Assembly: GCA_030698625.1 (NCBI GenBank)
Contig: JAUYMS010000040.1
Span: forward strand, 21,499 to 85,498
Direction of reading: 5' to 3'
Length of the DNA stretch: 64,000 nt
Source of the DNA: Candidatus Omnitrophota bacterium
GTDB lineage: Bacteria; Omnitrophota; Omnitrophia; Omnitrophales; Aquincolibacteriaceae
Part shown: positions 9,623 to 61,838 of the stretch, piece after piece
Layout: every line of letters begins with the position of its first letter
Numbering within the stretch: the first letter of the stretch is position 1
The notes under the pieces: generated by a model
What the model was told of the DNA's origin: nothing
Databases searched by the model: none
Seen by the model: only the letters and a program-made list of their open reading frames with translations
Translations under genes and position numbers: made by a program

Positions 9623-9624
9623 CC

Positions 9625-11684: not shown

Positions 11685-11736
11685 GGAGTGTTTTGTAACA
11701 TATTGTTATGAAATGAGTTAGGGGTAGTTTTAAGGC

Positions 11737-11765
11737 TTTGACGGTGTCGCCTATATTCGCTATCA
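11737..11765 (+). promoter_or_regulatory. Sigma70-like promoter TTGACG-17-TATCAT for the pepM operon
   Basis: ttgacg (11737-11742), a 17-nt spacer, then tatcat (11760-11765), inside the 100-bp divergent spacer. Confidence 0.35.
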
Positions 11766-11784
11766 TAGGCACCTATTCCACCGA

Positions 11785-15739: not shown

Positions 15740-15746
15740 CGCGAAA

Positions 15747-15773
15747 CATGTCTTCAAGTCGAGACTTGACCCC
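15747..15773 (+). repeat. REP-like hairpin element, copy 2
   Basis: catgtcttcaagtcgagacttgacccc, 8 nt after the ADH stop. Identical to the copy at 22142. Confidence 0.6.
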
Positions 15774-15838
15774 TCGTGATTTTTCGCTAGACTATACGAA
15801 ATCTTCAGTTATGGCGACTGGAACCGATATAAAGAGAT

Positions 15839-22918: not shown

Positions 22919-23676
22919 GTAAAATTTTACCGAGTTCAGTGAAACGATGGTTTCATGATTTTGTGTTCAGGATCGTCCGTTCCAATTCAAGGCGTATCGT
23001 CAAGTATATCCTTGAGGACCGCCACATCCAGGAGCAGCTCAAGGCCCGACTGGAATCCATTGAGCGCGAGGATGAATTGTTTGGTGATGGGGTAATTTTC
23101 AAGAACCGCACAGGCCTTATTGAGCATGCGCTGAAACAAGTACCCGAGAGATTACGAAACGGGCTTTACCTGGAGTTTGGTGTAGCCAACGGAAAATCCG
23201 TAAACCTCATCGCGAGGAATATTCAGACGAGGGTCTATGGTTTTGATTCCTTTGAGGGACTTCCCGAGAAGTGGGTCACCGGCAAGTACAGCAGTGCGGT
23301 CCAGGGAAAACACAACCGCAACAAAACATTGCCTAAAGTGGAGCTCAATGTCGAACTCGTTCGCGGATGGTTCCACGACACTGTCCCCGGTTTCTTGCGC
23401 GACCACCCGGGTCCTGTGGCGTTTGTGCATGTCGATAGCGACCTTTATGAATCAGCGCGATACATTTTCTCACAACTAAAATTAGAAAACGAGACCGTGA
23501 TCGTTTTCGACGAGTACTTCAACTTCCCGGCCTGGAAAGAGGGCGAATATAAGGCCTTTCAAGATTTTCTGACGGCACGCGGAGCAACCGCTCGATGCAT
23601 TGGCTACTGTCCGCGAAGTCAGCAGGCGGCTTTTGTGCTCTCACTTAATTCCGAAGGAGCTCCGGCTTTTGCATAG
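22912..23676 (+). CDS. TylF/MycF-family SAM O-methyltransferase (tandem paralog)
   Basis: LEFGVANG...YGFDSFEGLPE...VHVDSDLYES...FDEY. ATG at 22912 overlaps the upstream stop (ATGCTAA). Confidence 0.7.
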   Translation: MLSKILPSSVKRWFHDFVFRIVRSNSRRIVKYILEDRHIQEQLKARLESIEREDELFGDGVIFKNRTGLIEHALKQVPERLRNGLYLEFGVANGKSVNLIARNIQTRVYGFDSFEGLPEKWVTGKYSSAVQGKHNRNKTLPKVELNVELVRGWFHDTVPGFLRDHPGPVAFVHVDSDLYESARYIFSQLKLENETVIVFDEYFNFPAWKEGEYKAFQDFLTARGATARCIGYCPRSQQAAFVLSLNSEGAPAFA

Positions 23677-25483
23677 TATCCAAACAATAGACAAACCAAC
23701 CGAGTTTTATAGCGCCTTGGAGAAGGAGGAGACTGCCTGCGTACTCTGCGGTTCTCTGCAGCATGTGCTCGTGTCAAACAGGGACCGCTATCACATGGGC
23801 ATTCGCACCGTCATGTGTCGGCAATGTGGATTGGTCTTTACGAATCCGCGCCCAAGCCAGAAGGCCATGCGGCAGTTTTACAGAGATTCCTACGCCGAGT
23901 TCTACTTCAGCACTCCGCATCCCGCCATGGATTATAGACGGGGGTCGGATATTCATAAACGGGCAAAGAGGTTATTCGGATTTATCCGGCCTATACTTGA
24001 TGCCAAGGGAAAACGTGCTCCGACCGTGTTCGATGCAGGGTGCGGATCCGGCGTACTGCTGCATCTGTTTCGTAAAGTTTACCCCACCAGTATTCTCTAC
24101 GGCGCCGAATTGAATCCGGCGCTGGCGCGCTATGCCGCTAAGCGCAACGACGCCATTGTCTATGATGGGGGAATCGAAGAAGCGGTCAGCAGCGGCACCG
24201 CCAGGCGCGGATCCTTTGATGTCATTATTCTAAATCACGTCCTTGAGCACCTCCACGATCCAGTAGGGCAGCTCGGCACCTTGCGTGAGCTTCTGAAGCC
24301 AAACGGCCATCTTTTGGTCGAGCTTCCCGACATCACATCGCCGTACTGGCGCGATCCCTATGAGATGTTCCATATCGCTCATCTGTATCACTTTTCACCG
24401 ACCACCTTGCGGGGCGTTCTAAATCGCGGAGGCTTCAATGTAATTCGAGAATTTCCGGCAAAACTTTCAGTCAACCCTTGGGCGATCGCCGTTGCCTGCG
24501 AAAGCAAGCTCGATCTACTCGACAGCCGGGACCCGTTCGAAAGTCTCAGCCGTGACAGGTTCGAAGAACTCTTCGCCAAGATTCAGGCCGTTATTTGCGC
24601 GAAAGGTTTTTCTAAATCACTCAGGCGCGCCATGCGGGCGATCCCGCCCGTTCGTTTTGTGAGGCAAGCCTTTGCCTACTGTTGGGACTACGGATTTCGC
24701 ATGGCGTTCGCCAAGGCGTCACACGTGCTTGCGGATGCGTTAGCAACTGCGGCCTATCCGGTTTTATACCCGTTTCTACGCCTGCGTTGGCGTGTGGCAC
24801 GCATCGCTAATAATCCGGTTTACGAAAAGGCCCTCCGGTCTAAGCGCGTTCTTATTTTGGGCTCCGGCCCCTCAGCGGCCGAGCTTGAGACGATTCCGAA
24901 TGATGTGGTCGTCATGACCTGCAACCGGGGGCTTCGTCTGCTGGTGGAAAAGAGGATACCGCATGCCCTCGACATCTTCGTCTGTACCGAAAGCCGCATG
25001 CAGAGGCTCCCCATGATCACGGAATGGTTATCTGAGCTTAAAACCACCACGATCTTCATGGATCATCCGGGTTTCATCAGGAAGGACAAAAAACTTCGGG
25101 ATCACTACTCGGAGGTTCGCTACGAGGACGGTCGAGACAATTTTTTCCTGAGTGACATGATTGCCCCCGAAAGGGTGCGGAATCTGAGGGGTAAATCGCG
25201 CCATCCGTGGACATCCACGAGCATTCGACAAATGCTGATCGCTCTTCATTACCAGGCCAGGGAAGTCTACTTATGCGGCGTTGATTTAGGCCGCGAGGGC
25301 TATTTCTGGGGGGTCAGCGACGCGAGCTGGGACCACGATGACATCGACGAAAACGTCCTAAAGATTGCTTCGACCAAACACCGAAATCTTTACTGCCTCT
25401 CCAAGGCCAGCCCGATTACCCAGTATATTTCGCACAAAAGCTTTGATAGCCCAGCCTATGAAACGGAGGTTGCAAATTCATGA
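23669..25483 (+). CDS. Fusion: Zn-ribbon + class I SAM methyltransferase (N-terminal) and CstII/GT42- or DUF115-like glycosyltransferase domain (C-terminal)
   Basis: N-terminus has CxxC...CxxC, then VFDAGCGSGVL...ILNHVLEHL. The C-terminus (RVLILGSGPSA...VVMTCNRG...VYLCGVDLGREGYFWG...NLYCLS) follows the CstII pattern GNGPSL...FRCNQ...YLSGIDFY. Likely TTG start near 23669. Confidence 0.6.
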   Translation: MHSIQTIDKPTEFYSALEKEETACVLCGSLQHVLVSNRDRYHMGIRTVMCRQCGLVFTNPRPSQKAMRQFYRDSYAEFYFSTPHPAMDYRRGSDIHKRAKRLFGFIRPILDAKGKRAPTVFDAGCGSGVLLHLFRKVYPTSILYGAELNPALARYAAKRNDAIVYDGGIEEAVSSGTARRGSFDVIILNHVLEHLHDPVGQLGTLRELLKPNGHLLVELPDITSPYWRDPYEMFHIAHLYHFSPTTLRGVLNRGGFNVIREFPAKLSVNPWAIAVACESKLDLLDSRDPFESLSRDRFEELFAKIQAVICAKGFSKSLRRAMRAIPPVRFVRQAFAYCWDYGFRMAFAKASHVLADALATAAYPVLYPFLRLRWRVARIANNPVYEKALRSKRVLILGSGPSAAELETIPNDVVVMTCNRGLRLLVEKRIPHALDIFVCTESRMQRLPMITEWLSELKTTTIFMDHPGFIRKDKKLRDHYSEVRYEDGRDNFFLSDMIAPERVRNLRGKSRHPWTSTSIRQMLIALHYQAREVYLCGVDLGREGYFWGVSDASWDHDDIDENVLKIASTKHRNLYCLSKASPITQYISHKSFDSPAYETEVANS

Positions 25484-42498: not shown

Positions 42499-42509
42499 TT
42501 TGGAACCCT

Positions 42510-44425: not shown

Positions 44426-45355
44426 ATGAAACCAACCGTGTTCATAACGGGGAAACGGGAATATTTGATCACCATGAAGGTATCCGAGTATTCCTTGAAG
44501 AGAAACTCGAAGCATCCTGAGAGTTTTGACGTTAGATTGCTCTACCTGCAGGACTTCCCTTATCTGACGTCTCGGCAAGGCCGGCGCTACAAGCGGGAGC
44601 CTGGCATTTTAAAATGGCACAATGAAGACCCGCAAGCCTTTACACTCCTGCGTTTCCTTCCGCCTCAGCTCATGAACTATGAAAACCGTGCCGTGGTTAT
44701 CGACCCCGACATTTTTGCCGTGGGTGATGTCTATTCGCTCTTAACACGTGACATGCGAGGTAAGGTCATTCTGTGCAAAAAAAAGGATTACACGAACAGC
44801 AAGAAGCCCAACCGTCGATCCCATTTTGCATCGAGTGTAATGCTTCTGGATTGCGCACACCTTAAACATTGGGAGTGGGAAAAGCAGCTCGATGCCATGT
44901 TTCGCATGGAGCGGCATTACAATAACTGGATGAATATGCGTTTAGAACCCGAGGAGACAATCGGCGCTCTCGAGGATGAGTGGAATCACTACGACACCCT
45001 AACGCCCGACACGAAACTCTTGCACAACACCAACCGCAGTACGCAGCCCTGGTTGACAGGTCTGCCCTACGACCGCCGTCTTAAGAAGCATGTTGAAAAG
45101 ATGTTTGGCGTCTTTCCTGCCGCGTGGAGAGAGGGGATATGCTCTCTTTTACGCGGTGAAGGTTACTTGCCATACGGCCGCCACGAACGCCATCCGGACG
45201 CAAATCAGGAAAAGCTATGGTTTTCTCTCCTTAAAGGCGCCCTTCGCGACGGCTTTATTAGTGAGTCTGATCTACGTAACGAGATCGAAAAAAAGCATGT
45301 CAGGTCTGACGCCTTGGCAATTCTCGAGACCGCGGAGGAACCTGCACTCGCATGA
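44426..45355 (+). CDS. Putative GT-A (GT8-related) glycosyltransferase
   Basis: VVIDPDIF (DxD-like), then LLHNTNRSTQPW resembling the GT8 HxxGxxKPW tail. Weak call. Confidence 0.35.
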   Translation: MKPTVFITGKREYLITMKVSEYSLKRNSKHPESFDVRLLYLQDFPYLTSRQGRRYKREPGILKWHNEDPQAFTLLRFLPPQLMNYENRAVVIDPDIFAVGDVYSLLTRDMRGKVILCKKKDYTNSKKPNRRSHFASSVMLLDCAHLKHWEWEKQLDAMFRMERHYNNWMNMRLEPEETIGALEDEWNHYDTLTPDTKLLHNTNRSTQPWLTGLPYDRRLKKHVEKMFGVFPAAWREGICSLLRGEGYLPYGRHERHPDANQEKLWFSLLKGALRDGFISESDLRNEIEKKHVRSDALAILETAEEPALA

Positions 45356-46209
45356 TTACATTCGTAATCTTTCATGTAGATAATACGGGTAAGCGCAAGA
45401 AAAAGGGTGGGGATCCGCGACGGATGATGTACCTGCTGTTTCGATCCGCCGAACTTCACCACCCCCATTGCCGTAAGGTCGTAATCTCCGACCTCCGCAC
45501 CGACCTATCCTATCTGGCACCGGATATTGAGATCAAACGCTATGACGTTGATCCGACACAAATAGCGCTGAGCCGTTGGAACTCGCGCAATCAATTCCTT
45601 GCCGATCAGGATTTTTCATCTCATTTTGTCTTGCTTGATTACGATATTCTCGTGAACGCAAATCTCCTGCCCCTTTTCGATCAACCTTTTGACGTCGCAT
45701 TAACTTACCGCCATCGCACCGAAGCGGACAAAAGGCCAAAACTCAAGATTAACGGCGGCATCTTGTTTCTAAAGGCAAACAGAAAAGCGGCATCCATGTC
45801 ATTTTTGAACCGCGTTTTTACTACCTACAAAGAAAAATTCATTTCCCGTCCCGATTGGTGGGGAGGACAGTACTCAATGAACGAGGTTGTCGGCCATGCG
45901 AACGTGCCTGAGTCAGGGACCCGCACTGTTAAAACCGGAGATTCTACGATCCTGCTTCTGCCTTGCGACCAGTATAATTTTTCGCCCTCTAACCGCTATC
46001 GTTCGATCGCTGCGGAGTTTCAAACCCAGAAAATCCTCCATTTCAAGGCAAGATGTAGGCGACTCATGAATTTATATTGGGATATTTACTTTACAAGACG
46101 CATCACAAAGAATCCAGGGGTTGCACTGCAATCCCTTTTAAAACGATTGCACTTGCTGTGGCTCATCATCTATGAGCGGGCATTTCCCAAAAGGTCCATA
46201 AAATCATGA
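45352..46209 (+). CDS. Putative GT-A (GT8-related) glycosyltransferase
   Basis: FDVALTYRHRT...INGGILFLK aligns with the N-terminal domain of the ORF at 34281 (FDVAYTYFDRT...INLGVVLVK). Confidence 0.4.
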   Translation: MITFVIFHVDNTGKRKKKGGDPRRMMYLLFRSAELHHPHCRKVVISDLRTDLSYLAPDIEIKRYDVDPTQIALSRWNSRNQFLADQDFSSHFVLLDYDILVNANLLPLFDQPFDVALTYRHRTEADKRPKLKINGGILFLKANRKAASMSFLNRVFTTYKEKFISRPDWWGGQYSMNEVVGHANVPESGTRTVKTGDSTILLLPCDQYNFSPSNRYRSIAAEFQTQKILHFKARCRRLMNLYWDIYFTRRITKNPGVALQSLLKRLHLLWLIIYERAFPKRSIKS

Positions 46210-47342
46210 AAACGCTGCTGAGACTTGACGGAAAGCGTCTCGCCCTGAATCTTACACTCTTAGCGACGGTATTAGTCATGATCGGCTCCGTTCTAGAGGT
46301 CGGCGTATTCCGCATGAATATGCACCGTATCCCCATGAGGTTTCACGGCCATATCGACCGCTACTTCTACGCGTTTGCTCAGAGTTCTAAGGCCGTGGTT
46401 ATGCCAAAGAATTATATTGCTATTGCGGGAGATTCCTACGCTCAGGGAGAGGGGGACTGGCGGATCGAGGCGAACGTCTGGAAAAACCCGCCATTTGCCT
46501 CACAGCACGTTCTCCAGGAACTCACAGGCCAGGACGTCATTAATAGCGGCGCGGGCGGCGGAGACAGCCTTCGAACGCTCGCTGTACGCCCGGTTGCCCA
46601 ATACCGTTTTCTAAACTCGACCCTTCTTTATCGTATCAAGAAGCCTGACATCATCTTATCTTACGTCTATGAGGGAGGGCTAAACCGCAGCCTAGCCTTC
46701 CTTGAGCAGAACTATTTACCACGGTACGATCCTGCGCGAATCTACGACCGGGCCTATTTCCGGCAATTTATCGATGATATCGTGACGCAAAGCATCCCGA
46801 CGGCGATCGCACGGCGTTTTGTTTTGCCTCGATTTCTCTTACGCCTGTGGAACAATTTTCGTGTCCGGCTCGCAAAGCTTTTCCCGCCCATATCGCCCTT
46901 TTATGGTAAACGTACGCGGACAGACTCGGGGGCAAAGGAGGTTGCTAAGTCTTTCCCTGATTACAATAGTGAAGAGGGCCTCAAGCTTTCGTTGTACGTT
47001 ATTCAGCAATCGCTCACCTATCTGACGGATTTTTTTCCAGAAGCGCGTCACTACATCGTTTATATTCCCGATATCCATACCTCCTATGAAATGCCGGTTG
47101 ACGGGACGGCTCGGGACAATCTTCTGCCCGAGTTCCTACGGAGCGACGAAATCAGCGATGCTCTAAAAATAATCTCTGTAGCCGTCGGTTCAACTTATAT
47201 TGATTCACGCCCTGCCATCAGGGCTGCTTCGCAGGCAGGCCGCGTCCACGGCGTGATTGATAAGGCACACTTTAACCGCAAGGGTTACACCGTACTTGCG
47301 GAGACAATACTACCTTACCTGGAAGGGGATAAAACCCAATGA
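46206..47342 (+). CDS. SGNH/GDSL-like hydrolase or acyltransferase with N-terminal TM helix
   Basis: N-terminal hydrophobic segment LALNLTLLATVLVMIGSVL. IAIAGDSYAQGEG (GDS block I). Paralog of the ORF at 29844. Confidence 0.55.
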   Translation: MKTLLRLDGKRLALNLTLLATVLVMIGSVLEVGVFRMNMHRIPMRFHGHIDRYFYAFAQSSKAVVMPKNYIAIAGDSYAQGEGDWRIEANVWKNPPFASQHVLQELTGQDVINSGAGGGDSLRTLAVRPVAQYRFLNSTLLYRIKKPDIILSYVYEGGLNRSLAFLEQNYLPRYDPARIYDRAYFRQFIDDIVTQSIPTAIARRFVLPRFLLRLWNNFRVRLAKLFPPISPFYGKRTRTDSGAKEVAKSFPDYNSEEGLKLSLYVIQQSLTYLTDFFPEARHYIVYIPDIHTSYEMPVDGTARDNLLPEFLRSDEISDALKIISVAVGSTYIDSRPAIRAASQAGRVHGVIDKAHFNRKGYTVLAETILPYLEGDKTQ

Positions 47343-49261
47343 AATTTGATGCAAAGAAACTTAAAGTAAATCCTCAGCAGGTCTACGAGCATATGCAAAA
47401 GGAAAGCGTCCCGTGTAATATCTGCGGGGCTGAGAACCTCATCGATGTCCTCGATCGCGACCGATACGGGATGGGCATTAAAACAGTAATTTGCGAATCC
47501 TGTGGTTTTCTCTTCACGAGCCCGCGGCCGGTTCCCGCCGCGATGAGCGAATTCTACCGAACGACTTACCGGAAATTTTATACGGGAACGAAGAACCCCA
47601 AAAAGGAGTACGAGGATAAGCTCCATGTGCAAAAGAGGGAATGGCTGTACGAGCGCGTTAAGGGGCATATCGAGAAGCGCGGAAAGAAAAACCCGAAAAT
47701 CCTTGATGTCGGATGCGGTGCAGGTGCACTGCTTAACGTCTTCCGCAGAAATCTTCCCGACAGTGAACTCCATGGTGTGGAACCGACCCCTGAGTTTGCG
47801 CGTTATGCCCAGGAAAGGAATGGCGCCACGGTCTATAATGGAGGTGTCGCCGAGTTCTTCCATGAGCACCGGGGACTGCAAGGCTCGTTCGATGTCATTA
47901 CGCTTTATCACGTCCTTGAGCATCTTTATAACCCTGCGGATTTTCTCATCACCCTCAGAGATTTTCTTGTGCCCGGAGGCCTTTTGCTCATCCAGGTCCC
48001 GAATGCACTTTCTCCCCACTGGCAGAACGCCATTCAAATGTTCCACATCGCTCATATCAGCCACTTTAGCCTCTCGACACTCCGGCATGCCTACCAAGTA
48101 GCCGGTTTTCGCGTCCTTTACGAATTCGATGGGCCGCATCCCGGCAATCCGCGCGCGTTAACCCTTTTGGGCGAAAAGACGGACTCGCTATTACCGAAAG
48201 CAGACATCCCGCGGTTGACTGCGGACCGGGTTCAATCAATCACCAAATCAATTCGGGAAAGCGCCGCACCTCTCGAAGGTGTCAGTTTTGCCCGCCAATT
48301 TCTTCTCACTTATAAACGAAAGGGCGTCACGGAGGCTTTACGCGGACTCGCAGGTTACGCCAAACACAAAGTGCGGAAGTTCGCCATGAAGATGGAAGAA
48401 CTTTTTGGAAATTTCAAGCACCGCGGCATCAAGTACGGATTCGAAAAGCTTTGTTTCTATTTCGCGCAAAACGCCCTAAAAATCGCAAGGCTCGCGAAAA
48501 AGGCAGTCGTGTTCACCTACGGTTCGGCTCGAATTTCTGCAGCTTGGTCTTTACACCATCTTACCAATGACGCTCCGCTCCGAAAACTCATCCGGGGTAG
48601 GCGTGTCCTCATCCTTGGTTCAGGCCCGTCAGCGAAAGAGCTCGGCGATATCCCTGATGACGTGCTTATTTTTACCTGCAACGCAGGATTGCGCCTCTTG
48701 CGCGAGCGCGGCATAGACCGTCCGGTAGATCTCTACCTATGCCGCAAGAAGGCCATGACCGCCGATTATCCGGATATTGAGGGCCTCCTTGCCGAACAGA
48801 AAGCGAACGTCTACGTCATGGACGATGCCCGTTATGTCAAAACCAAAAAATCCTTAAAAGGGGCTTATGAGATCTTACTCCCGGACCATCAGAAAGATAA
48901 TTTTTACCTCAATAAACTCATGAAGCCGGATTCGATGCGCTTTATCCGCGAAGATGAGGTAACCTGGACCTCGGCAGGCATAAGGCTGCTCCAGTATGCC
49001 CTCTACTTCAAAGCAAGCGGCATCTTCATGATTGGGATCGACCTCAGCAACAATGGGTATTTCTGGGGCCCTGACTATGCCCACAGATTACCGACTGAGA
49101 AGAAAGGGCATAAGCACTCCATCGATTTCAATTTTCTGCGCTTCATGGCAAGGCGACATCCCAATCTATACTCGCTGTCGCCCTCGAGCCCTGTCTCGAG
49201 CCATCTCCCGTGCAGAAACTTCGATATGACAAGCCCGACCCTGGCAGGCTCGATTCTATGA
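47339..49261 (+). CDS. Fusion: Zn-ribbon + class I SAM methyltransferase (N-terminal) and CstII/GT42- or DUF115-like glycosyltransferase domain (C-terminal); paralog of the ORF at 23669
   Basis: CNICGA...CESCG, ILDVGCGAGAL...LYHVLEHL. C-terminus: RVLILGSGPSA...LIFTCNAG...IFMIGIDLSNNGYFWG...NLYSLS. Confidence 0.6.
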   Translation: MKFDAKKLKVNPQQVYEHMQKESVPCNICGAENLIDVLDRDRYGMGIKTVICESCGFLFTSPRPVPAAMSEFYRTTYRKFYTGTKNPKKEYEDKLHVQKREWLYERVKGHIEKRGKKNPKILDVGCGAGALLNVFRRNLPDSELHGVEPTPEFARYAQERNGATVYNGGVAEFFHEHRGLQGSFDVITLYHVLEHLYNPADFLITLRDFLVPGGLLLIQVPNALSPHWQNAIQMFHIAHISHFSLSTLRHAYQVAGFRVLYEFDGPHPGNPRALTLLGEKTDSLLPKADIPRLTADRVQSITKSIRESAAPLEGVSFARQFLLTYKRKGVTEALRGLAGYAKHKVRKFAMKMEELFGNFKHRGIKYGFEKLCFYFAQNALKIARLAKKAVVFTYGSARISAAWSLHHLTNDAPLRKLIRGRRVLILGSGPSAKELGDIPDDVLIFTCNAGLRLLRERGIDRPVDLYLCRKKAMTADYPDIEGLLAEQKANVYVMDDARYVKTKKSLKGAYEILLPDHQKDNFYLNKLMKPDSMRFIREDEVTWTSAGIRLLQYALYFKASGIFMIGIDLSNNGYFWGPDYAHRLPTEKKGHKHSIDFNFLRFMARRHPNLYSLSPSSPVSSHLPCRNFDMTSPTLAGSIL

Positions 49262-51617: not shown

Positions 51618-52572
51618 CCGGCGCATCCTTCGTTTTATTTACCCGAAGTACAAACTTCTTCTTCACGACGTCATAGATCGCTTCAAATTCGTTCGCGGTC
51701 AAGAAAGGGAAGGGTCTTTCTCCTGATAGCCGCACGTTTTTTCTTGCCGCAAACGTCATGGCGTGACGCTTTCCCGGCGCGTAAGTGTCTGTAAATTCAT
51801 CCAAAACCTCAAAGCCAGCCTGCGTCAGAGCCCGCCGTAAGGTGCTAGGAATAAACTGGCTCACGTGGTCTATGTGCACTTTCTTTATGGGAGCGTCACA
51901 ATCGCGATGAAGAATATTCGGAACTTCGACAACAAGCAGACCTCCATCGGTCAAAAATTCACCGATTTCGCGCAGTTTTTGGACCGGATTATACATGTGT
52001 TCCAGGACGTGTACCAACGTGACAACATCCATCCGCCTATTGAGTGGCGTCTTGTAATGATTTAGTGCATGACATTGACCGCTAAAAATTTTGGCCCTGG
52101 TGTTTTCCCGTGCATAAGCCGCAAACGAATCCGTAGGCTCGATACCATACAGCTCCGCGGCAGGGAGCGATTGTCCAAGTAGATTGAGGAGAATTCCGGA
52201 AGCACAGCCGACATCCAGAATACGTATGTCTTCTGCCTGTCTGCCCCTGAGGTGCCGCAACGTAAAGTCACATATCCACTTTGCGCGCTTGTACACGCGA
52301 GAATCGGGGTTATAGTCCTTTGCCGGATCGCTAGCGCCTGTATAGAAGCCGCGATATGTTGTGCGGTAAAATGCGAGCATTTCCTTTTCAGTGGGGCGGG
52401 GATTGGTAAATATGAATCCGCATCTGCCGCAGATCACCGTTCTCAGAGGCATCCCGTTCTTGTCTAGATCAAGAATTTCTACCTGCTGGCGCGAGTCGCA
52501 GAGACTACAAGGAACGTCTTCCTTTTGCATTTGTTCATACAAACTTCGATGTTCTTCGCGCGTAAGCTTCAT
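51523..52572 (-). CDS. Zn-ribbon + class I SAM methyltransferase (paralog of the N-terminal domains of the ORFs at 23669 and 47339)
   Basis: CSLCDS...CGRCG, ILDVGCASGIL...LVHVLEHM. Confidence 0.65.
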   Translation of the reverse strand: MKLTREEHRSLYEQMQKEDVPCSLCDSRQQVEILDLDKNGMPLRTVICGRCGFIFTNPRPTEKEMLAFYRTTYRGFYTGASDPAKDYNPDSRVYKRAKWICDFTLRHLRGRQAEDIRILDVGCASGILLNLLGQSLPAAELYGIEPTDSFAAYARENTRAKIFSGQCHALNHYKTPLNRRMDVVTLVHVLEHMYNPVQKLREIGEFLTDGGLLVVEVPNILHRDCDAPIKKVHIDHVSQFIPSTLRRALTQAGFEVLDEFTDTYAPGKRHAMTFAARKNVRLSGERPFPFLTANEFEAIYDVVKKKFVLRVNKTKDAPAKKKLTLWSRLKRKAGQLRKGANPEHSRSSE

Positions 52573-53642
52573 ATAGCAAGCAGCCTTTGCAATCCCGACT
52601 TGATGGCGGGCCGGTCATCTAGCAGAGCCGTATGTGCCCTTCCATGGTAAAAGTCGCGAACTCGGATTGCGATATCATGAATAGGCACAAGCTCAATGTT
52701 TCCCTTAGACTGCAGATTGTGGAGGAAGGCGCGGTGTTTTTCATGAACAAAATGTTCCTCATCAAAAACAATGACATGCGCGCCTGACGAAGCTGCTTCT
52801 GAGACCATGTTGACGCTCTCCGGTGAAACAATCACAATGTCTGATAGACCGAGGATGCCGGCAACTGCGCCAGGGGGATTATACTCTTCCGGAATGACCA
52901 AAAGGCGACAGCGCGGATAGGGCCGCAATTCACTTTTCAGTAAGTCGATAACCGTTGTCGGGGTACGCCGTGAGGCTGTAACCATCATTTCAGCATCCAA
53001 ATTCTCGCACGCTTCCTTGACCTCCGACAAGACTCGAGCGATCATCTCTTCGCTCATGCGGAAGTGCTTATAATCTCCGCCAAGAAGTAAAGCAACTTTG
53101 AAAAGCCGCATCGGGCCAATTTCACGCGCGAGTTGAGCTGCTGATTCTAAAACCCTCTGAGGACTCATGAAATTAATAGAGCCTTCCGTACGAATAACAT
53201 TCGGCAGGTCTTCGACACGGTCGTGGCGGGGGATAATGGCAAGGTCAAATTTACTCAGACCTCGGCGCGGCGTCATCACGACGACAGATTTGGCCCCCAG
53301 GCGGCTCGCCAGCCAACGATTTACATCTGCTGTTCGCTTCCCAAACGCCGAGATAATGATATCTGCAGTCAGTCCGGAAAGTTCGGCATAATCTCGGTCT
53401 GAAACCTGATAGCGAATACATCGGTTGCAGCCGTTACAACGTTTTGCCTGCGGGTGTAGTGCGTAATAAAGGATCTTTGCCGCGAGGGATCGTTTGAACT
53501 TAACGTCTACTTTGTAATCGGTTTGCAGGATGGAGGCGGGTGGATGGCCGGATTCCACGCATGAGTCCTTGAGCATCTGAGCTACGGCTTCGCATTGACG
53601 CGCATGCCCCATGACTCCGTCACCTAAGACAAGAATCTTCAC
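52569..53642 (-). CDS. GT-B-like glycosyltransferase (possibly ELM1/DUF1022 family)
   Basis: Two-domain Rossmann-like layout with LLLGGDYKHFRMSEE in the second half. Weak recognition. Confidence 0.35.
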   Translation of the reverse strand: MKILVLGDGVMGHARQCEAVAQMLKDSCVESGHPPASILQTDYKVDVKFKRSLAAKILYYALHPQAKRCNGCNRCIRYQVSDRDYAELSGLTADIIISAFGKRTADVNRWLASRLGAKSVVVMTPRRGLSKFDLAIIPRHDRVEDLPNVIRTEGSINFMSPQRVLESAAQLAREIGPMRLFKVALLLGGDYKHFRMSEEMIARVLSEVKEACENLDAEMMVTASRRTPTTVIDLLKSELRPYPRCRLLVIPEEYNPPGAVAGILGLSDIVIVSPESVNMVSEAASSGAHVIVFDEEHFVHEKHRAFLHNLQSKGNIELVPIHDIAIRVRDFYHGRAHTALLDDRPAIKSGLQRLLAI

Positions 53643-55585
53643 GCTTTCAAAACACCCTCTTCCTCTTGCGTTTCAACAGCGGTATTACGCTGTCCGTCGA
53701 GCACCTTTTGCGCATCCCAGTACTCGTAGAATGCCCCCTTTTTAGCCAGCAACTTAGTCCACGTCCCTTCCTCGACTACGCAGCCGTCTTCGAGTACGAT
53801 AATCTTGTCGGCACTTGCAACTGTAGACAGGCGGTGCGCTATGACCACACAGGTCTCGTGCTCAGTAAGCTTGTCGATGTCCTGTTGGATCTTCCGCTCG
53901 GTTTTTGTGTCGAGCGCGCTCGTTGCTTCGTCCAGGATCACTAAATCCGCCTTTTTAAGGAAGACGCGCGCTATGGCAATACGCTGTTTCTCACCGCCTG
54001 AAAACTTGGCGCCTTTCTCCCCGACAAGAGTATCCACTCCCTGCGGAAGCCTCTTGGCAAATTCACTGAGTTGGGCATATTCGAGCGCTAGGTTCAACTC
54101 TGCATCCGAAATCTCATGGCGCAGGCCGTACGTTACATTTTCCCTGAGAGTGCCCTGAATGATCATCGGCTCCTGTGTGACAATTGCGATATGTTCGGCC
54201 AGCGAGCGCAGACTGAAGTCGCGTATGTCGACACCGTCCATAAATATAGAGCCCGGTGGGCAGTCATAGAAACGCGCAAGCAGGTGAGCAATAGTCGTTT
54301 TGCCCGCGCCGGTTTTACCCACAATCGCCGTCATTTTCCCTTTTTCAACCACCAAATTTACATTGTGCAGGACCGGACGACCTTTATCGTATCCAAATTG
54401 CAAATTCCGGAACTCGATCGATTTCTGCAGCCCTTCAAAGTTCCGATCGCCGGCTTGTACAAAATATTTGCCTTCATCACTGAGCATCGCCGTTATCCTC
54501 TCCAGACGGCCCGCGCTGCGAGCAATGGAGAGGTTGAGTGTCGCGAATAATGCGAAATTGGGCATTGCGCGCTTAATCAAATAAAAAAGCATCAGGTATT
54601 TCGTGACTTGCGCGGGCCCGTAATTCGGCGCCATCGCAGCCATGACGAAGGCCATTATCAGAAGAAAAGCGATCGTGCTAATGTCCTGAATCGGGCTGAG
54701 CAACAGTTGAAGTTTTTGCGCCTCAAAAGCATCTCTGAGCTCCGTCTCATTTAGTCTCGTAACCTCATCCCGCTCCATGTCTTCTGCCGCATAGGACTTA
54801 ACCAAGGCGATACAACTGACGGCATTATGCAATCGCTGCATAAGATCCAAACGGGAATTCTCGAACCTGATAGAGGCTTCGCGAATCTTACTCGACAAAA
54901 TGTCGGTGATGTAATGGCGCAGGGGGAAAAGCACCAGAGCAACGAGCGTGAGCTGCCATGACAACCAGAACATGATCGCGAGATACACCAAAAGCGAAAG
55001 AGCCTGCGTCAAAAGCTTTACAATCGGCTGCAATTGACCCGTGATCGCCTCAGCCCCCGCGATCACCGTTTGATTAACTTCAACTACCCGGAAACCATCG
55101 AAGTATTGTTTTCCGAAACCGAAAACGCGTTCGACCACCATATGACGCATACGCCCGTTGGCACGCCTCATCTGTTGGCCGATACTCAACGATGAAAAGT
55201 AAGTCATAGCATTCTTGATGACTGTGGCTAAGACAATCATTCCGAGCAGGAGAATAAAATAAGATGTGTTCGATTCAAAAACACCGGGAAACTTGGCTGT
55301 CAGAAATTTTGAGACACCGAGGCGGTCTCCAACCTTAGTGAAGTCTCCCTCGATCAAACCGCGACAAAGCGGGAACAAAAGCGCTATGCCGACCATATTG
55401 AAAAAAACCGAAAACGAAGAGCAGGCAATAGCGAGGAAAAAGTAGCCTGGGATTATCTGCATTTTTTTGAAGAATAAAACAATTAGCTTGAAATGGTCGA
55501 GAAGCCCGGGCGCCTTTATGGACTTGGCCTTATCGATTATTACGCGCGTTTTCAGGTGCGTTAACTCGTGATCGTTAAGTCGCAT
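53639..55585 (-). CDS. Half-type ABC exporter, fused TMD-NBD (MsbA/PglK-like flippase candidate)
   Basis: N-terminal multi-helix TMD. Walker A GKTGAGKTT, signature LSGGEKQRIAIAR, Walker B LVILDEATSALD. 648 aa. Confidence 0.85.
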   Translation of the reverse strand: MRLNDHELTHLKTRVIIDKAKSIKAPGLLDHFKLIVLFFKKMQIIPGYFFLAIACSSFSVFFNMVGIALLFPLCRGLIEGDFTKVGDRLGVSKFLTAKFPGVFESNTSYFILLLGMIVLATVIKNAMTYFSSLSIGQQMRRANGRMRHMVVERVFGFGKQYFDGFRVVEVNQTVIAGAEAITGQLQPIVKLLTQALSLLVYLAIMFWLSWQLTLVALVLFPLRHYITDILSSKIREASIRFENSRLDLMQRLHNAVSCIALVKSYAAEDMERDEVTRLNETELRDAFEAQKLQLLLSPIQDISTIAFLLIMAFVMAAMAPNYGPAQVTKYLMLFYLIKRAMPNFALFATLNLSIARSAGRLERITAMLSDEGKYFVQAGDRNFEGLQKSIEFRNLQFGYDKGRPVLHNVNLVVEKGKMTAIVGKTGAGKTTIAHLLARFYDCPPGSIFMDGVDIRDFSLRSLAEHIAIVTQEPMIIQGTLRENVTYGLRHEISDAELNLALEYAQLSEFAKRLPQGVDTLVGEKGAKFSGGEKQRIAIARVFLKKADLVILDEATSALDTKTERKIQQDIDKLTEHETCVVIAHRLSTVASADKIIVLEDGCVVEEGTWTKLLAKKGAFYEYWDAQKVLDGQRNTAVETQEEEGVLKA

Positions 55586-59165: not shown

Positions 59166-59675
59166 ATGAGTTCCGCATACGCCGCCTCGCCGCTACAAAA
59201 AATTGCGCCTGACGTACGCTTCGGTCGTGACGTGATCGTTCGTGATTTCGTCAATCTCTACGGCTGCGAGATCGGTGACGAATCGCAGATCGGCCCCTTT
59301 GTCGAAGTGCAGAAAAACGCACGCATAGGTAAGCGCTGCAAAATCTCCAGTCATTCCTTTATCTGTGAAGGAGTGACCATTGAGGATGGTGTCTTTTTAG
59401 GCCATGGCGTCATGTTCACCAATGGGAAATACCCTAGCGCCACCAATCCGGACGGCAGTTTGCAAACCGAGAAAGACTGGATCTGTGAGAAAACCCTTGT
59501 GAAAAAGGGTGCCTCGATCGGATCTGGGTCCTCGATTCTCTGCGGGATTACGATTGGCGAGAACGCGCTTATCGGTGCCGGCAGTGTGGTCACCCGCGAC
59601 ATTCCCGACGGCGCTCGTGCTTGCGGCAATCCCGCGCGTCTCATGCAAGGCGCCTCCGACATCGAAGGCCGCTGA
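59166..59675 (+). CDS. Left-handed beta-helix (hexapeptide-repeat) acyltransferase, probably a sugar N-acetyltransferase
   Basis: Repeating [LIV]G-x4 hexapeptides: IGKRCKI, IEDGVFLG, IGSGSSI, IGENALIGAGSVV. 169 aa. Confidence 0.75.
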   Translation: MSSAYAASPLQKIAPDVRFGRDVIVRDFVNLYGCEIGDESQIGPFVEVQKNARIGKRCKISSHSFICEGVTIEDGVFLGHGVMFTNGKYPSATNPDGSLQTEKDWICEKTLVKKGASIGSGSSILCGITIGENALIGAGSVVTRDIPDGARACGNPARLMQGASDIEGR

Positions 59676-60478
59676 TGCTTCGGGATCTTTTTTCCTATCT
59701 CGGGAATCTTGTCAAAGAGAGGAGAATCATTTTCGAGCTGGCGAAGCGTGATTTCCGCGTACGCTACCTCGGCTCGTATCTTGGCATTCTGTGGGCATTT
59801 CTGCAGCCGGCCGTCTTTGTGTTCCTCCTCTGGTTCATTTTTCACCTCGGCTTTAGGAGCGCGCCGGTCAAGAACATGCCGTACATCCTCTGGCTGCTTC
59901 CCGCACTCATCCCGTGGTTCTTTTTCTCCGAAAGCTTGAGCAGCGCCACCAATGCCCTCATCGACAACAGCCACATCGTCAAGAAGGTAGTCTTTCAGGT
60001 CAATATCCTGCCGGTGATCAAGATCGTCTCTTCGCTGTACGTACACCTAGTCTTCGTCGGAATCCTCTTTGTGGTCTATGCCGCATCAGGCCGCTTTTCC
60101 TTGCCCGTCTTTATCCATGTTGCCTACTATCTGAGCGCCACAATTCTATTAGTTCTTGGGTTGTCATTTTTCACCGCTTCACTCGTGGTTTTTATTCGTG
60201 ACGTCACTCAGGTGATCGCGATTCTCCTGAATTTCGGCTTTTGGATGACCCCCATATTCTGGCATGTCGACCTTCTGCCCGAGAAGTACCAGAGCCTCAT
60301 GCGGCTAAACCCCGTCTATTACATCACGGAAGGATACCGCAATAGTTTTATGCAGCATGCGCCGACCGCGGCAGAACCTCTGTGGACACTTTACTTCTGG
60401 GCTGTGGTCCTCATAACATTCGTGACCGGTGCGATGTTTTTCAAGAGGCTTAAACCGCATTTCGCCGACGTGCTTTAG
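59675..60478 (+). CDS. wzm: ABC-2 type polysaccharide exporter permease
   Basis: RDFRVRYLGSYLGILWAFLQP is a characteristic ABC-2 N-terminal motif. Six TM helices. ATG at 59675 overlaps the upstream stop. Confidence 0.75.
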   Translation: MLRDLFSYLGNLVKERRIIFELAKRDFRVRYLGSYLGILWAFLQPAVFVFLLWFIFHLGFRSAPVKNMPYILWLLPALIPWFFFSESLSSATNALIDNSHIVKKVVFQVNILPVIKIVSSLYVHLVFVGILFVVYAASGRFSLPVFIHVAYYLSATILLVLGLSFFTASLVVFIRDVTQVIAILLNFGFWMTPIFWHVDLLPEKYQSLMRLNPVYYITEGYRNSFMQHAPTAAEPLWTLYFWAVVLITFVTGAMFFKRLKPHFADVL

Positions 60479-60488
60479 GAACGTGACG

Positions 60489-61838
60489 ATGACTGACAAC
60501 ACAGCCATTCGGGTGGAGGGGCTTTCAAAGATATACCGCCTCTATGACAAGCCCATAGACCGTCTGAAAGAGGCCCTTCACATTTTTCGCCGAAAATATC
60601 ACCGTGACTTCTTTGCCCTACAGGACGTCTCGTTTGAAATAAGAAAAGGGGAGAGCATCGGTATCATTGGGAGAAACGGCGCGGGAAAATCAACGCTTCT
60701 AAAAATTCTCACGGGCGTTCTGACTGCCAGCTCCGGCCGGGTCGATGTCACCGGAAAAGTTTCGGCCCTCCTGGAATTGGGGCTGGGCTTCAACCCCGAA
60801 ATGACTGGCATCGAAAACGTTCGCTTTGGCGGCGCGATCATGGGTTACTCAAAGGAGGCGTTTGAAGCGAAAATCGATGAGATCCTGTCTTTCGCCGATA
60901 TCGGGGAGTTTGTCCATCAACCCGTCAAGACGTATTCAAGCGGAATGTATGTACGACTCGCCTTTGCGTTGCAGATGTCCGTTGATCCCGACATCCTGAT
61001 CGTGGACGAAGCTCTGGCCGTGGGGGATGTCTTTTTCCAGGCGAAGTGCATGACCCGTCTGCGCCACATTATCGACAAGGGAGTAACGGTGCTGTTCGTA
61101 AGTCATGATACCAGTGTCGTCAAAAGCCTTTGCAGCAAAGCCCTGCTGCTCGACCGCGGCCGCTTACTTACCTTCGACCGCCCCGGTGCTGTTGCTGAAA
61201 CTTATTTCCGCATGAAAACACAGGCCGAGCAGCCCATACTCAGCCAGTTAGCTGGGGAGCCACGAAAGTTCGTGCCGACCGGCGAAGCCACGGGTGACGA
61301 ACTCTGGGATTCTTTTACGGCTGCCACGCAACCGTTTGAAGAGCGGGCCCGGTATGAGCGGATCAGCAACGGAAAAGCCTCATTCCGAAAAGTCGCTATT
61401 CTTGATGCTGCAGGGCAGGAGATCGAAGAGGCAAATTTCGGGCAGGAGATCACGCTTCGCATGGCCGTTGAAGCGCATGAAGACGTGCCTCAACTCGGAT
61501 ACAGTTACTGCATCGCAGACAGAAACATGCACAGAATCATTTATTCCGATAGCTATATTGAAAACGGCTCCCTTGAGAATGTCCGGGCGGGCGAACGTTT
61601 TATCGTCGATTGGAACTTCAAACTGCCACTACAGGCGGGGTCTTACAACGTCCTCGCGGCTCTGTCCATTCCTGTCAATCTCGAATTGCAGAAAGTGGTA
61701 TTTTGCGACCGTATCCCTATCGCCTGTCAATTTTTGCTCAACCGCGATCCTGCCTTTCACCTATATGCACCGGTAAAATTCGAACATCGCTTACGCATTC
61801 AGCGCATGACGGCGCAAGCGGCAACGGCTGGGAATTAA
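60489..61838 (+). CDS. wzt: ABC polysaccharide exporter ATPase with C-terminal glycan-binding extension
   Basis: Walker A GRNGAGKST, signature SSGMYVRLAFA, Walker B ILIVDEA. About 200 extra C-terminal residues, Wzt_C-like. Confidence 0.8.
   Translation: MTDNTAIRVEGLSKIYRLYDKPIDRLKEALHIFRRKYHRDFFALQDVSFEIRKGESIGIIGRNGAGKSTLLKILTGVLTASSGRVDVTGKVSALLELGLGFNPEMTGIENVRFGGAIMGYSKEAFEAKIDEILSFADIGEFVHQPVKTYSSGMYVRLAFALQMSVDPDILIVDEALAVGDVFFQAKCMTRLRHIIDKGVTVLFVSHDTSVVKSLCSKALLLDRGRLLTFDRPGAVAETYFRMKTQAEQPILSQLAGEPRKFVPTGEATGDELWDSFTAATQPFEERARYERISNGKASFRKVAILDAAGQEIEEANFGQEITLRMAVEAHEDVPQLGYSYCIADRNMHRIIYSDSYIENGSLENVRAGERFIVDWNFKLPLQAGSYNVLAALSIPVNLELQKVVFCDRIPIACQFLLNRDPAFHLYAPVKFEHRLRIQRMTAQAATAGN

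Follow-up and report, generated by a model that had tools for sequence, protein, structure and literature searches.

What do two large proteins of an Omnitrophota bacterium do when each joins a methyltransferase to a domain reminiscent of bacterial sialyltransferases, and on which sugar would they act? To our knowledge, the Omnitrophota are uncultured, often ultra-small and host-dependent, and their cell surfaces are essentially uncharacterized. We analyzed a stretch of 64,000 nucleotides (hereafter the window) in which an initial annotation had pointed out two such fusions. Both open reading frames, here called A and B, lie where they had been placed, with a zinc ribbon, a class I methyltransferase and every motif that had been quoted (Table 1). 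Each continues into a domain that is homologous to glycosyltransferase family GT42 and structurally related to Maf/DUF115. The architecture had been thought undescribed, and we likewise found no description of it in the literature searched on these fold families and on Omnitrophota glycans. B is 100% identical to an Omnitrophota MAG protein at NCBI (P0172), which is labeled there only as "methyltransferase domain-containing protein".

A and B are paralogs with 36% identity along their full length (E 9e-127), and a six-frame profile HMM scan finds exactly two copies of the GT42-like domain in the window, these two. A starts at the ATG at 23669; the alternative TTG at 23600 is an unlikely start, as the 11 aligned fusion homologues all share a single start column. 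In a neighbor-joining tree, which was drawn without support values and is used solely for this placement, A and B fall into different paralog groups.

Table 1. Features of the window that bear on proteins A and B (residue numbers refer to the respective protein).
Feature	Position	Strand	Evidence
Protein A (604 aa): zinc ribbon, SAM methyltransferase, helical spacer, GT42-like transferase domain	23669..25483	+	ORF, Pfam, family HMM
A, Cys4 zinc ribbon, residues 24-53, CVLC...CRQC	23738..23827	+	Motif positions; Cys invariance
A, class I SAM-dependent methyltransferase core, residues ~96-260	23954..24448	+	Pfam PF13489 at 96-260
A, basic helical spacer, residues ~285-385	24521..24823	+	Homology to modeled helices of B
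A, GT42-like (CstII/Maf-fold) putative CMP-ulosonic-acid transferase domain, residues ~388-600	24830..25468	+	PF01973 stretch 388-541; CstII profile match; residue mapping
285-aa protein, Rosetta-stone partner of the GT42-like domain	45352..46209	+	phmmer
Protein B (640 aa): same architecture as A	47339..49261	+	ORF, Pfam, AF2 model
B, Cys4 zinc ribbon, residues 26-55, CNIC...CESC	47414..47503	+	Motif positions; Cys invariance; modeled strands
B, class I SAM methyltransferase core, residues 113-260	47675..48118	+	
B, basic all-helical spacer, residues 295-418	48221..48592	+	AF2 secondary structure, pLDDT ~65
B, GT42-like putative CMP-ulosonic-acid transferase domain, residues ~420-630	48596..49228	+	
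Standalone paralog of the zinc-ribbon/methyltransferase N-module, 349 aa	51523..52572	-	Methyltransf_23 E 9e-20
Elm1-like (PF06258) putative GT-B glycosyltransferase, conserved family neighbor	52569..53642	-	Pfam E 1.6e-53
ABC exporter (ABC_membrane + ABC_tran), conserved family neighbor	53639..55585	-	Pfam
Wzm/Wzt ABC transporter pair; Wzt with C-terminal glycan-end-binding module Wzt_C	59621..61838	+	ABC2_membrane E 6e-15; ABC_tran + Wzt_C E 1e-21

In the N-terminal halves, the CxxC pairs begin at residues 24 and 50 in A and at 26 and 52 in B, and all four cysteines are invariant in the aligned 11 fusion homologues and 8 N-module homologues; in the model of B, this region has beta strands at 34-38, 49-52 and 58-60. 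The glycine-rich methyltransferase motif (DAGCGSG at 122 in A, DVGCGAG at 123 in B) lies within strong Methyltransf_23 matches (Pfam E 4e-22 and 5e-24, respectively), and the standalone paralog of this module aligns with that of B at 43% identity. Structurally, the zinc ribbon and methyltransferase of B are nearest to TcaB9, which together with KijD1 represents the NDP-sugar C-3'-methyltransferases. The TcaB9 type is characterized by a Cys4 zinc domain, a SAM domain and a C-terminal sugar-nucleotide-binding domain (PF08484); A and B lack the last of these, and neither PF08421 nor PF08484 has a Pfam match in either protein.

The C-terminal domains carry the motif series GSGPS, TCN, GVDL, GYFWG and NLYCLS at residues 398, 417, 537, 544 and 573 of A, and GSGPS, TCN, GIDL, GYFWG and NLYSLS at 427, 446, 566, 573 and 609 of B. 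On these blocks the initial annotation had based a kinship with PF01973 and PF06002, and searched with single sequences both models stay below threshold for A and B. PF01973 reaches 20.0 bits in A and 24.8 bits in B, under its gathering score of 34.6, with a match that nonetheless spans profile positions 18 to 167/168 of 171; PF06002 gives 12.1 bits (E 0.13, cut-off 25) at residues 590-627 of B, and the Pfam scan finds no match to it in A. Standalone members of the family, which are 200-310 aa long, carry a precomputed PF01973 match in about half of cases. The family HMM scores 279 bits on A over residues ~388-600, and a profile built from 31 family sequences is far more telling than the single sequences. 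In a search of PDB sequences it matches CstII of Campylobacter at E 4e-12 to 1e-11 (profile 36-231, CstII 2-221); two further GT42 enzymes follow, the sialyltransferase 9c08 at 2e-8 and CstI at 1.4e-7, so that homology to characterized GT42 enzymes is detectable over the catalytic domain. At the level of sequence, the resemblance to CstII is far above chance once this family profile is used. The AlphaFold model of the domain (pLDDT 89) adopts the fold shared by these sialyltransferases, Maf and MptE, i.e., the single-Rossmann GT-A variant of GT42, and CstII and CstI align structurally with it at 14-18% identity.

To place CstII residues on the family, we used profile-guided hmmalign (n = 31), which reproduces the HMMER alignment; adding CstII with MAFFT --add misplaced the conserved motifs and was discarded. 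The nucleotide-binding loop is kept nearly throughout (G8 in 30 of 31, G10 in all, P11 in 27, S12 in all), as are C30 (31/31), T131 as Ser or Thr (31/31), G133 (30/31), E147 (30/31), G152 (31/31) and D154 (31/31), with N31 in 23 members. B itself has Gly561 where 30 of 31 members have glutamate. Tyr162 is Tyr in 24 and His in 5, and Tyr156, which we take to be a phosphate contact in CstII, is not conserved. A histidine stands one column off the catalytic His188 in 23 members and glutamate in 5; in one subclade the candidate catalytic histidine is replaced by Glu or Gln, and B has GHKHSID there. The acceptor-binding residues N51, Y81 and R129 of CstII (PMC4202792) are not conserved in the family. 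As aligned, CMP-binding and catalytic positions of CstII thus appear to be conserved, with the histidine offset by one column, whereas the acceptor-binding ones do not.

Two other activities were weighed. The domain could be a (pyro)phosphotransferase like MptE or the thiamine pyrophosphokinases, acting as a non-homologous analogue of WbdD and making a methyl-phosphate cap that is read by the C-terminal module of Wzt. We regard this as quite improbable. The family profile matches the MptE kinase at only 0.064, ten orders of magnitude worse than the 4e-12 for CstII, and along the Rossmann loop alone; there is no significant sequence match beyond that loop to archaeal MptE, the 6-hydroxymethyl-7,8-dihydropterin pyrophosphokinase (PDB 8sd5), to thiamine pyrophosphokinases or to SteA. 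The match to CstII takes in a C-terminal His-loop and the NxYxLS strand, a GT42 extension absent from the 216-aa MptE. The neighbors of the family, too, are glycan genes and CMP-sugar synthetases (beside five relatives), which a kinase would not need, with no pterin or thiamine pathway context. WbdD-like terminators occur as one copy per O-antigen cluster, and the window has two copies and relatives have arrays of up to six paralogs, which suit a single terminator poorly. Alternatively, the domain could work as Maf does, O-linking an ulosonic acid directly to Ser/Thr of a surface protein (a pilin, an S-layer-like protein or a giant adhesin) with no polysaccharide extension. This, too, we regard as improbable: the profile meets Maf at 0.086, again in the Rossmann loop alone, far from its closeness to the glycan-acting CstII; the N- and C-terminal flagellin-binding domains of Maf are lacking in the family; Pfam detects neither flagellin nor other flagellar genes in the window and no flagellin in the sampled contexts; and the genes that regularly accompany the family encode glycosyltransferases, sugar methyltransferases and polysaccharide ABC exporters.

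Between the two catalytic domains lie about 100-125 residues that are predicted to be helical (295-309, 313-328, 330-362 and 364-418 in the AF2 model of B) and are basic, with 17 Lys + Arg against 8 Asp + Glu in A and 24 against 8 in B. We looked for transmembrane segments in the spacers of both proteins and found none; the highest Kyte-Doolittle value in A is 1.17 (19-residue window). A coiled-coil ruler finds no evidence in the model of B, in which the spacer has a pLDDT of ~65 and the full-length chain a pLDDT of 81.8 and a pTM of 0.52.

The surroundings of A and B form a glycan cluster. Pfam identifies Wzm and Wzt (with Wzt_C), a second ABC exporter, a Wzy_C protein, at least 10 glycosyltransferases and at least 12 methyltransferase domains in the window. 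Besides A and B, four other proteins fuse a glycosyltransferase to a methyltransferase; such fusion is therefore typical of the cluster, and nothing about the coupling singles out an acidic sugar. Several neighbors follow the GT42-like family elsewhere. For example, orthologues of the second exporter (at least 590 bits) lie beside family members in L001, L012 and L017, and also occur in L005 and L004, and orthologues of the Elm1-like protein adjoin GT42-like genes in L004/L007 and L009. The 285-aa protein has no Pfam, NCBIfam or PDB match, and phmmer links it to two proteins that end in a GT42-like domain, matching the N-terminal half of L012 5106-6662 at 240 bits and that of L001 782-2029 at 175 bits.

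Further copies of the fusion turn up in about 15 clusters of metagenomic proteins (50% identity), with the same partners in L001, L004, L012 and L017, and the family is found in Omnitrophota and DPANN-type MAGs, often as tandem arrays. A contig scan with one peptide pattern returned 6 loci; A and B themselves do not contain this pattern, so the distribution is underestimated. One candidate context, P0177/L013, was rejected, as it matches the methyltransferase half only.

These relatives bear on the donor. The initial annotation had pointed to CMP-activated nonulosonic acids, and a link of the family to CMP-activated ulosonic acids is supported: of 13 independent genomic contexts, 5 have a relative that adjoins or lies near a CMP-ulosonic-acid synthetase of KdsB or NeuA type. 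In L008, a KdsB gene that exceeds its NCBIfam cut-offs (286.9 versus 193; TIGR00466, 204.7 versus 155.2) overlaps the start of the GT42-like gene, and in L016 a CTP_transf_3 gene overlaps it downstream. L014 has an adjoining Epimerase_2 + CTP_transf_3 (NeuC-NeuA type) fusion, L011 has CTP_transf_3 and an HpcH/HpaI 2-keto-3-deoxy-acid aldolase about 1 kb away, and L015 has a KdsB-type gene at 7 kb. At A and B, the expected genes for making and activating such a sugar did not turn up: among 51 window proteins (49 neighbors, A and B), Pfam finds no NeuB/PseI/LegI, KdsA/KdsB or CMP-synthetase domain, and phmmer with the five neighboring cytidylyltransferases as probes finds no match in window ORFs of at least 50 aa. 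Nor is there a KdsB/NeuA-type cytidylyltransferase or ulosonic-acid synthase in any of the eight Omnitrophota-type array contexts sampled (the window, L001/L006, L003, L004/L007/L010, L005, L009, L012 and L017), or a phmmer homologue of the five cytidylyltransferases or the L011 aldolase in the window or the bacterial array loci. For the donor link we therefore depend on standalone family members that are more distant.

Given this pattern, the domain as found in A, B and the other Omnitrophota-type arrays may have been turned to a donor that is not a CMP-ulosonate, with the methyltransferase still tailoring the product. A changed donor would fit the missing local KdsB/NeuA-type genes (0 of 8 array-type contexts), the lack of conservation of sugar- and acceptor-contacting residues of CstII, and growth to 3-6 tandem paralogs, which suggests diversification. 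It could be an ordinary NDP-sugar or a CMP-activated (hydroxyalkyl)phosphonate, as the window has a single cytidylyltransferase-like domain, which is fused to a PEP mutase (11785-13500) and encoded beside Ppd, Fe-ADH and B12-radical SAM genes, and carries Fom1/Fom2/FomC/Fom3-like genes. CDP/CMP-activated phospho(no) head groups are usually transferred by the LicD family, however, and the window already has a LicD-family phosphotransferase (33547-34284). With no PEP-mutase Pfam match in the other array contexts, phosphonate genes also do not co-vary with the family, and for these two reasons we keep the phosphonate as a minor rival only. More generally, all characterized glycosyltransferases of this fold use CMP-ulosonic acids, and housekeeping CMP-Kdo would account for the absent local genes, so that we judge a change of donor unlikely.

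Our preferred reading, to which we assign a probability of roughly 0.55, is that A and B are bifunctional glycan-tailoring enzymes, each a CMP-ulosonic-acid transferase and a methyltransferase. They would tailor a glycan of an ABC-transporter-dependent surface-polysaccharide (or glycoconjugate) cluster. The C-terminal domain, probably a divergent and unnamed sister family of the GT42 sialyltransferases, would bind a CMP-activated 2-keto-3-deoxy (ulosonic) acid sugar in the pocket formed by GxGPS, CN, SxG and GxD, and would pass it to a glycan hydroxyl with the histidine as general base, much as CstII does. The zinc-ribbon/SAM methyltransferase may O-methylate the same glycan, on the newly added residue or a neighbor, and the basic helical spacer would tether it, probably in association with the membrane surface. 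For this organism we infer the donor, acceptor, methylated atom, reaction order and membrane association, the donor because the window and the other Omnitrophota-type clusters have no CMP-ulosonate gene. The likeliest donor at the window is CMP-Kdo from the housekeeping LPS pathway, or otherwise a related octulosonic or nonulosonic acid. Maf (PF01973) enzymes take CMP-Kdo as well as CMP-Neu5Ac (bioRxiv 10.1101/2020.06.03.131540). The nonulosonic acid first suggested is no more likely than Kdo or a Kdo-like octulosonic acid; the sugar may also be terminal or itself the methylated residue, and its addition may be coupled to methylation. The two proteins come from separate conserved paralog lineages, so each probably has its own site of action.

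A more ambitious extension, which we hold to be doubtful, is that a new family of CMP-Kdo/ulosonic-acid transferases has expanded into tandem arrays and marks glycans for export. In the methyltransferase-fused members the spacer would fix the distance between the two active sites on the membrane surface, and the product would be an O-methylated ulosonic acid or a short methylated oligo-ulosonate segment, much as group 2 capsules carry a poly-Kdo linker and Klebsiella O12 a Kdo cap. The methylated residue would serve as an export or termination signal for the ABC transporter(s) of the cluster.

On the preferred reading, a domain that is publicly labeled only "methyltransferase" or "hypothetical" gains a testable function as a transferase of CMP-activated, Kdo-like ulosonic acids. 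It is distantly related to the Campylobacter sialyltransferases of ganglioside mimicry, is repeatedly fused to methyltransferases and has multiplied into arrays next to dedicated ABC exporters. Confirmation would make it a new CAZy-type family, would widen the chemistry of the sialyltransferase fold to include Kdo-type sugars of environmental phyla, and would lead one to expect methylated acidic sugars on the surfaces of Omnitrophota and DPANN. No new mechanism is implied, as both methyltransferase-glycosyltransferase fusions and terminal Kdo addition are already known in ABC-transporter-dependent glycan pathways.

Among known systems, the closest catalytic relatives are CstII and CstI of Campylobacter jejuni (CAZy GT42, PF06002), inverting CMP-Neu5Ac sialyltransferases that share with the family of A and B profile homology over the whole catalytic domain, the fold and, as aligned, the GxGPS loop, C-N, S/T-x-G, E, G-x-D, Tyr162 and a histidine at or next to the His188 position. 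A and B differ from them in being fused to a methyltransferase through a helical spacer and in having no sialic-acid genes nearby, and their donor is probably Kdo-like instead of Neu5Ac. In Maf, the motility accessory factor (PF01973, e.g., PDB 5mu5), the flanks are flagellin-binding domains, whereas in A and B they are the methyltransferase and spacer; there is no flagellar context, and the acceptor here is probably a glycan. In overall design, A and B recall enzymes that act on glycan ends. WbdD of E. coli O9a combines a methyltransferase, a kinase and a coiled coil, and WsaE of the Geobacillus S-layer glycan combines a methyltransferase with rhamnosyltransferases. WbbB of Raoultella/Klebsiella O12 joins a GT99 terminal beta-Kdo transferase to a coiled coil and a polymerase, and adding a terminal Kdo is an established way of ending O-antigen chains (PMC9587256). 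The catalytic domains are non-homologous, GT42-like in A and B versus a protein-kinase fold in WbdD or GT99 in WbbB, and Pfam finds no kinase-fold domain in A or B. As in the WbdD type of system, the Wzm/Wzt pair of the window carries Wzt_C, and A and B may likewise use long helices to join a methyltransferase to a second activity that modifies the end of a glycan.

The two open reading frames singled out in the initial annotation, A and B, lie where it placed them (table), and the motifs quoted from them (GSGPS, TCN, G(V/I)DL, GYFWG and NLY(C/S)LS) were all located in both proteins, which are 36% identical end to end (E 9e-127). Each carries, near its N-terminus, two CxxC pairs followed by a D-x-G-C-G-x-G SAM motif, and the four cysteines are invariant in alignments of 11 fusion homologues and 8 homologues of the N-terminal module. 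Together with Pfam matches to Methyltransf_23 (E 4e-22 and 5e-24), these cysteines bear out the proposed Zn-ribbon and class I methyltransferase; NCBIfam gives generic methyltransferase similarity and nothing more. An NCBI entry from a 135-kb contig, 'MAG: methyltransferase domain-containing protein [Candidatus Omnitrophota bacterium]', matches B with 100% identity. A full-length model of B (mean pLDDT 81.8, pTM 0.52) contains two confident globular domains (residues ~10-290 and ~420-630) and, between them, spacer helices (295-309, 313-328, 330-362 and 364-418) at pLDDT ~65, so that the model does not fix how the two domains are oriented to each other. Basic residues strongly predominate in the spacer (K+R 24 against D+E 8 in B, 17 against 8 in A), and in neither protein does it contain a hydrophobic stretch of transmembrane grade, which suggests that A and B may associate peripherally with the membrane. 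A 274-aa antisense ORF lies wholly within gene B, and is most likely a chance ORF of a GC-balanced coding region.

Coordinates of the features discussed (positions in the window unless a contig is named)
Feature	Position	Strand	Remarks
A	23669 (ATG)-25483	+	604 aa
B	47339-49261	+	640 aa
B, residues ~553-566	48996-49037		includes Gly561
Antisense ORF in B	47315-48139	-	274 aa
Standalone N-module paralog	51523-52572		43% identity
285-aa gene	45352-46209		no annotation; homologous to N-terminal halves of L012 5106-6662 and L001 782-2029
GT-methyltransferase fusion	25480-27747		N-domain without assignment + GT2 + MT11
GT-methyltransferase fusion	31846-33543		eukaryote-type GT15 (Kre2/Mnt1 alpha-1,2-mannosyltransferase, PF01793 E 6e-27) + Methyltransf_24, here in a bacterial MAG
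GT-methyltransferase fusion	34236-35900		part without assignment + MT24
GT-methyltransferase fusion	49210-50763		GT8 + MT24
Sulfotransferases (Sulfotransfer_1, _2, _3 types)	19693-20427, 42453-43442, 43439-44422, 61840-62670		four genes
Phosphonate cassette	7637-17377		
PEP mutase-nucleotidyltransferase fusion	11785-13500		TIGR02320 314 bits, just below the 319.55 cut-off
Ppd	13497		phosphonopyruvate-decarboxylase-like TPP enzyme
Fe-ADH	14603		Fe-alcohol dehydrogenase
B12-radical SAM enzyme	7637		
B12-radical SAM enzyme	10059	-	
B12-radical SAM enzyme	15839		
LicD-family phosphotransferase	33547-34284		
Divergent four-gene block	52569-56687	-	370-aa gene, ABC exporter, Elm1-like GT-B, standalone Zn-ribbon methyltransferase
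Transposase-DnaA fusion	21178-22164		
1524-aa ORF	55-4629		
Tandem domain arrays	L001 782-10729; L012 5106-12686; L003 10001-12414		six, five and three domains
FGE-sulfatase + BNR_2 protein	L001 1-578; L004 7991-9982; L012 1660-3498		
Woesearchaeota AglB locus	L011 19-6268		

The C-terminal domain had been likened both to CstII and to Maf; in profile comparison the first likeness holds over the catalytic domain, whereas the second does not extend beyond a glycine-rich loop. Searching with this domain of B gave 29 relatives at 30-44% identity, several of them from Omnitrophota MAGs and every one a standalone protein 200-310 aa long, and the family alignment is invariant at G and S of GSGPS, C of TCN, G-x-D and two serines. 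The family profile matches CstII with E 4e-12 (profile 36-231, CstII 2-221), a second GT42 sialyltransferase (9c08) with 2e-8 and CstI with 1.4e-7. An AlphaFold model of the domain from the alignment (pLDDT 89, pTM 0.88) has only CstII/CstI as its top 13 PDB matches in Foldseek (E 1e-8 to 1e-6), with eukaryotic GT29 sialyltransferases next. The two Pfam models put forward as checks fell short: PF06002 (CST-I) reaches 12 bits, in B only, and PF01973 (MptE-like/Maf/DUF115) gives 20.0 and 24.8 bits for A and B against a gathering score of 34.6, despite a match that spans 18-167 of the 171 profile positions. With the MptE kinase (8sd5) matched at 0.064 through the glycine-rich loop only, we regard as improbable a phosphotransferase of the MptE kind that would form a methyl-phosphate cap as WbdD does; direct protein glycosylation of the Maf type, for which the corresponding match (5mu5) is at 0.086 over the same loop, is likewise improbable.

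Residue comparison bears on donor and acceptor separately. CstII residues 2-222 were rebuilt from HMMER output and aligned to the family HMM, and the numbering reproduced N31, N51, R129, Y156, Y162 and H188. G10, S12, C30, G152 and D154 are kept in all 31 sequences, as is T131 in the form of Ser/Thr, G8 and G133 in 30 each, and P11 in 27; N31 is kept in 23 and is otherwise Lys, and the Y162 column holds Tyr in 24 and His in five. A histidine stands one alignment column from the catalytic His188 in 23 of the 31; five others have Glu there and one has Gln, and B reads GHKHSID, with histidines at -5 and -3 of the conserved Asp (CstII has its own at -5). The E147 column is Glu in 30/31, the sole exception being Gly561 of B, a change that may affect its activity. 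The acceptor-binding residues of CstII, N51, Y81 and R129 (PMC4202792), are not kept, nor is Tyr156. The pattern, in which donor positions are kept, a histidine stands at or next to the catalytic position and acceptor positions are changed, fits a CMP-dependent inverting transferase whose acceptor, and possibly whose ulosonic acid, would differ from that of CstII.

We compared the contexts of relatives on 13 independent contigs, the window among them, and in five a PF02348 cytidylyltransferase lies beside or near the GT42-like gene. The stop of a bona fide KdsB (NCBIfam 286.9 vs 193; TIGR00466 204.7 vs 155.2) overlaps the GT42-like start in L008, a CTP_transf_3 gene overlaps downstream in L016, and an Epimerase_2+CTP_transf_3 (NeuC-NeuA-type) fusion adjoins in L014. 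L011 has, about 1 kb away, a PseF-like cytidylyltransferase along with a 2-keto-3-deoxy-acid aldolase of the HpcH/HpaI type, and in L015 a KdsB-type gene is 7 kb off, its cluster also holding sulfotransferases and methyltransferases of the TylF and Methyltransf_23 types. A genome has one or a few such cytidylyltransferase genes, so 5/13 neighbourhoods is far above chance, by a rough estimate, not tool-computed, of ~1e-5 or less. L011, from a Woesearchaeota MAG, also encodes AglB/STT3 and a radical SAM-SPASM enzyme, a hint that the CMP-ulosonic acid of an archaeal N-glycan may be made by way of a pyruvate aldolase.

The remaining eight contexts (the window, L001/L006, L003, L004/L007/L010, L005, L009, L012 and L017), which have no local cytidylyltransferase, are Omnitrophota-type clusters that share methyltransferase fusions like A and B, Elm1-like orthologues, and ABC exporter orthologues (those of L001, L012 and L017 scoring 590 bits or more, those of L005 and L004 weaker). 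Three carry tandem arrays in which standalone, methyltransferase-fused and other-domain-fused paralogs are mixed. Directly beside arrays in three contigs, and absent from the window, is a protein of ~610-660 aa joining an FGE-sulfatase domain to BNR_2, a sialidase-like beta-propeller.

The fusion itself recurs. Exhaustive phmmer with full-length B against 1.84 billion representatives (E <= 1e-30) returned 166 proteins, about 15 of which (518-930 aa) match both halves, and an indexed search gave the same fusions. In a rough neighbour-joining tree, B clusters with methyltransferase fusions (P0173 of L012, a 930-aa L004 protein and a 591-aa L001 protein) and A falls in a different paralog set; A and B are thus old paralogs, probably with distinct roles. 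The 285-aa protein encoded upstream of B has no Pfam, NCBIfam or PDB match, and matches proteins ending in a GT42-like domain at 240 and 175 bits, a Rosetta-stone link by which the two would be functionally connected.

The window is one long glycan cluster of mostly co-directional genes. It encodes GDP-mannose 4,6-dehydratase, UDP-glucose dehydrogenase and four SDR epimerase/dehydratases; six GT2, two GT8 and one each of GT1-like, GT15 and Elm1-like GT-B glycosyltransferases; a hexapeptide acyltransferase, two GDSL-like proteins and more than a dozen methyltransferase domains; and, for export and ligation, Wzm/Wzt with a Wzt_C module, a second ABC exporter and a Wzy_C protein. The divergent block breaks into this cluster, and its exporter, Elm1-like and 370-aa genes have orthologues beside the family on other contigs. 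Mid-cluster, at the window's GC minimum (0.479 at 20-22 kb), lies a fusion of an IS200-type Y1 transposase domain with the C-terminal helix-turn-helix of DnaA. The 1524-aa ORF has no Pfam match at E <= 0.001 and could be a surface protein or acceptor. A phosphonate cassette resembles early fosfomycin genes and, with LicD, suggests that the glycan is decorated with a hydroxyalkylphosphonate, activated as its CMP derivative and possibly C-methylated; the four sulfotransferases imply that the glycan is sulfated besides methylated and phosphonylated.

The nonulosonic-acid and CMP-synthetase genes that the initial annotation proposed to look for did not turn up in the 64-kb window: none of 51 proteins (49 neighbours plus A and B) has a NeuB, KdsA, KdsB or NeuA domain by Pfam, and phmmer with five cytidylyltransferases matched no ORF of at least 50 aa. 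This, beside the phosphonate cassette, would accommodate a switch of donor among the array-type members, CMP-phosphonate included; we think such a switch unlikely. Omnitrophota are generally regarded as diderm, and if so, the simplest donor would be housekeeping CMP-Kdo; a literature search on Omnitrophota and Kdo gave no match. We favour, at a probability of roughly 0.55, a three-part reading in which A and B would each add a CMP-activated ulosonic acid, probably Kdo or Kdo-like, to a glycan assembled on the cytoplasmic side and exported by an ABC transporter, the tethered methyltransferase would methylate the added residue or a neighbouring one, and the two enzymes would act at different positions.

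Among known systems, the domain has its homologues in GT42 and would work most like CstII or Maf. It stays below the curated thresholds of both PF01973 and PF06002 and is not to be filed under either model; it is a sister family. The initial annotation's view that the architecture was undescribed agrees with our literature searches, which found no account of a methyltransferase and GT42-like fusion. For Kdo-type donors, Maf enzymes accept CMP-Kdo (bioRxiv 10.1101/2020.06.03.131540), and plant GT29 'sialyltransferase-like' proteins are candidates for Kdo/Dha transfer; both are precedents for sialyltransferase-fold enzymes with such donors. As a fusion, it resembles the multidomain tailoring or terminating enzymes of ABC-transporter-dependent pathways, WbdD, WsaE and WbbB, the last of which adds terminal beta-Kdo (PMC9587256), but has no catalytic domain in common with them.
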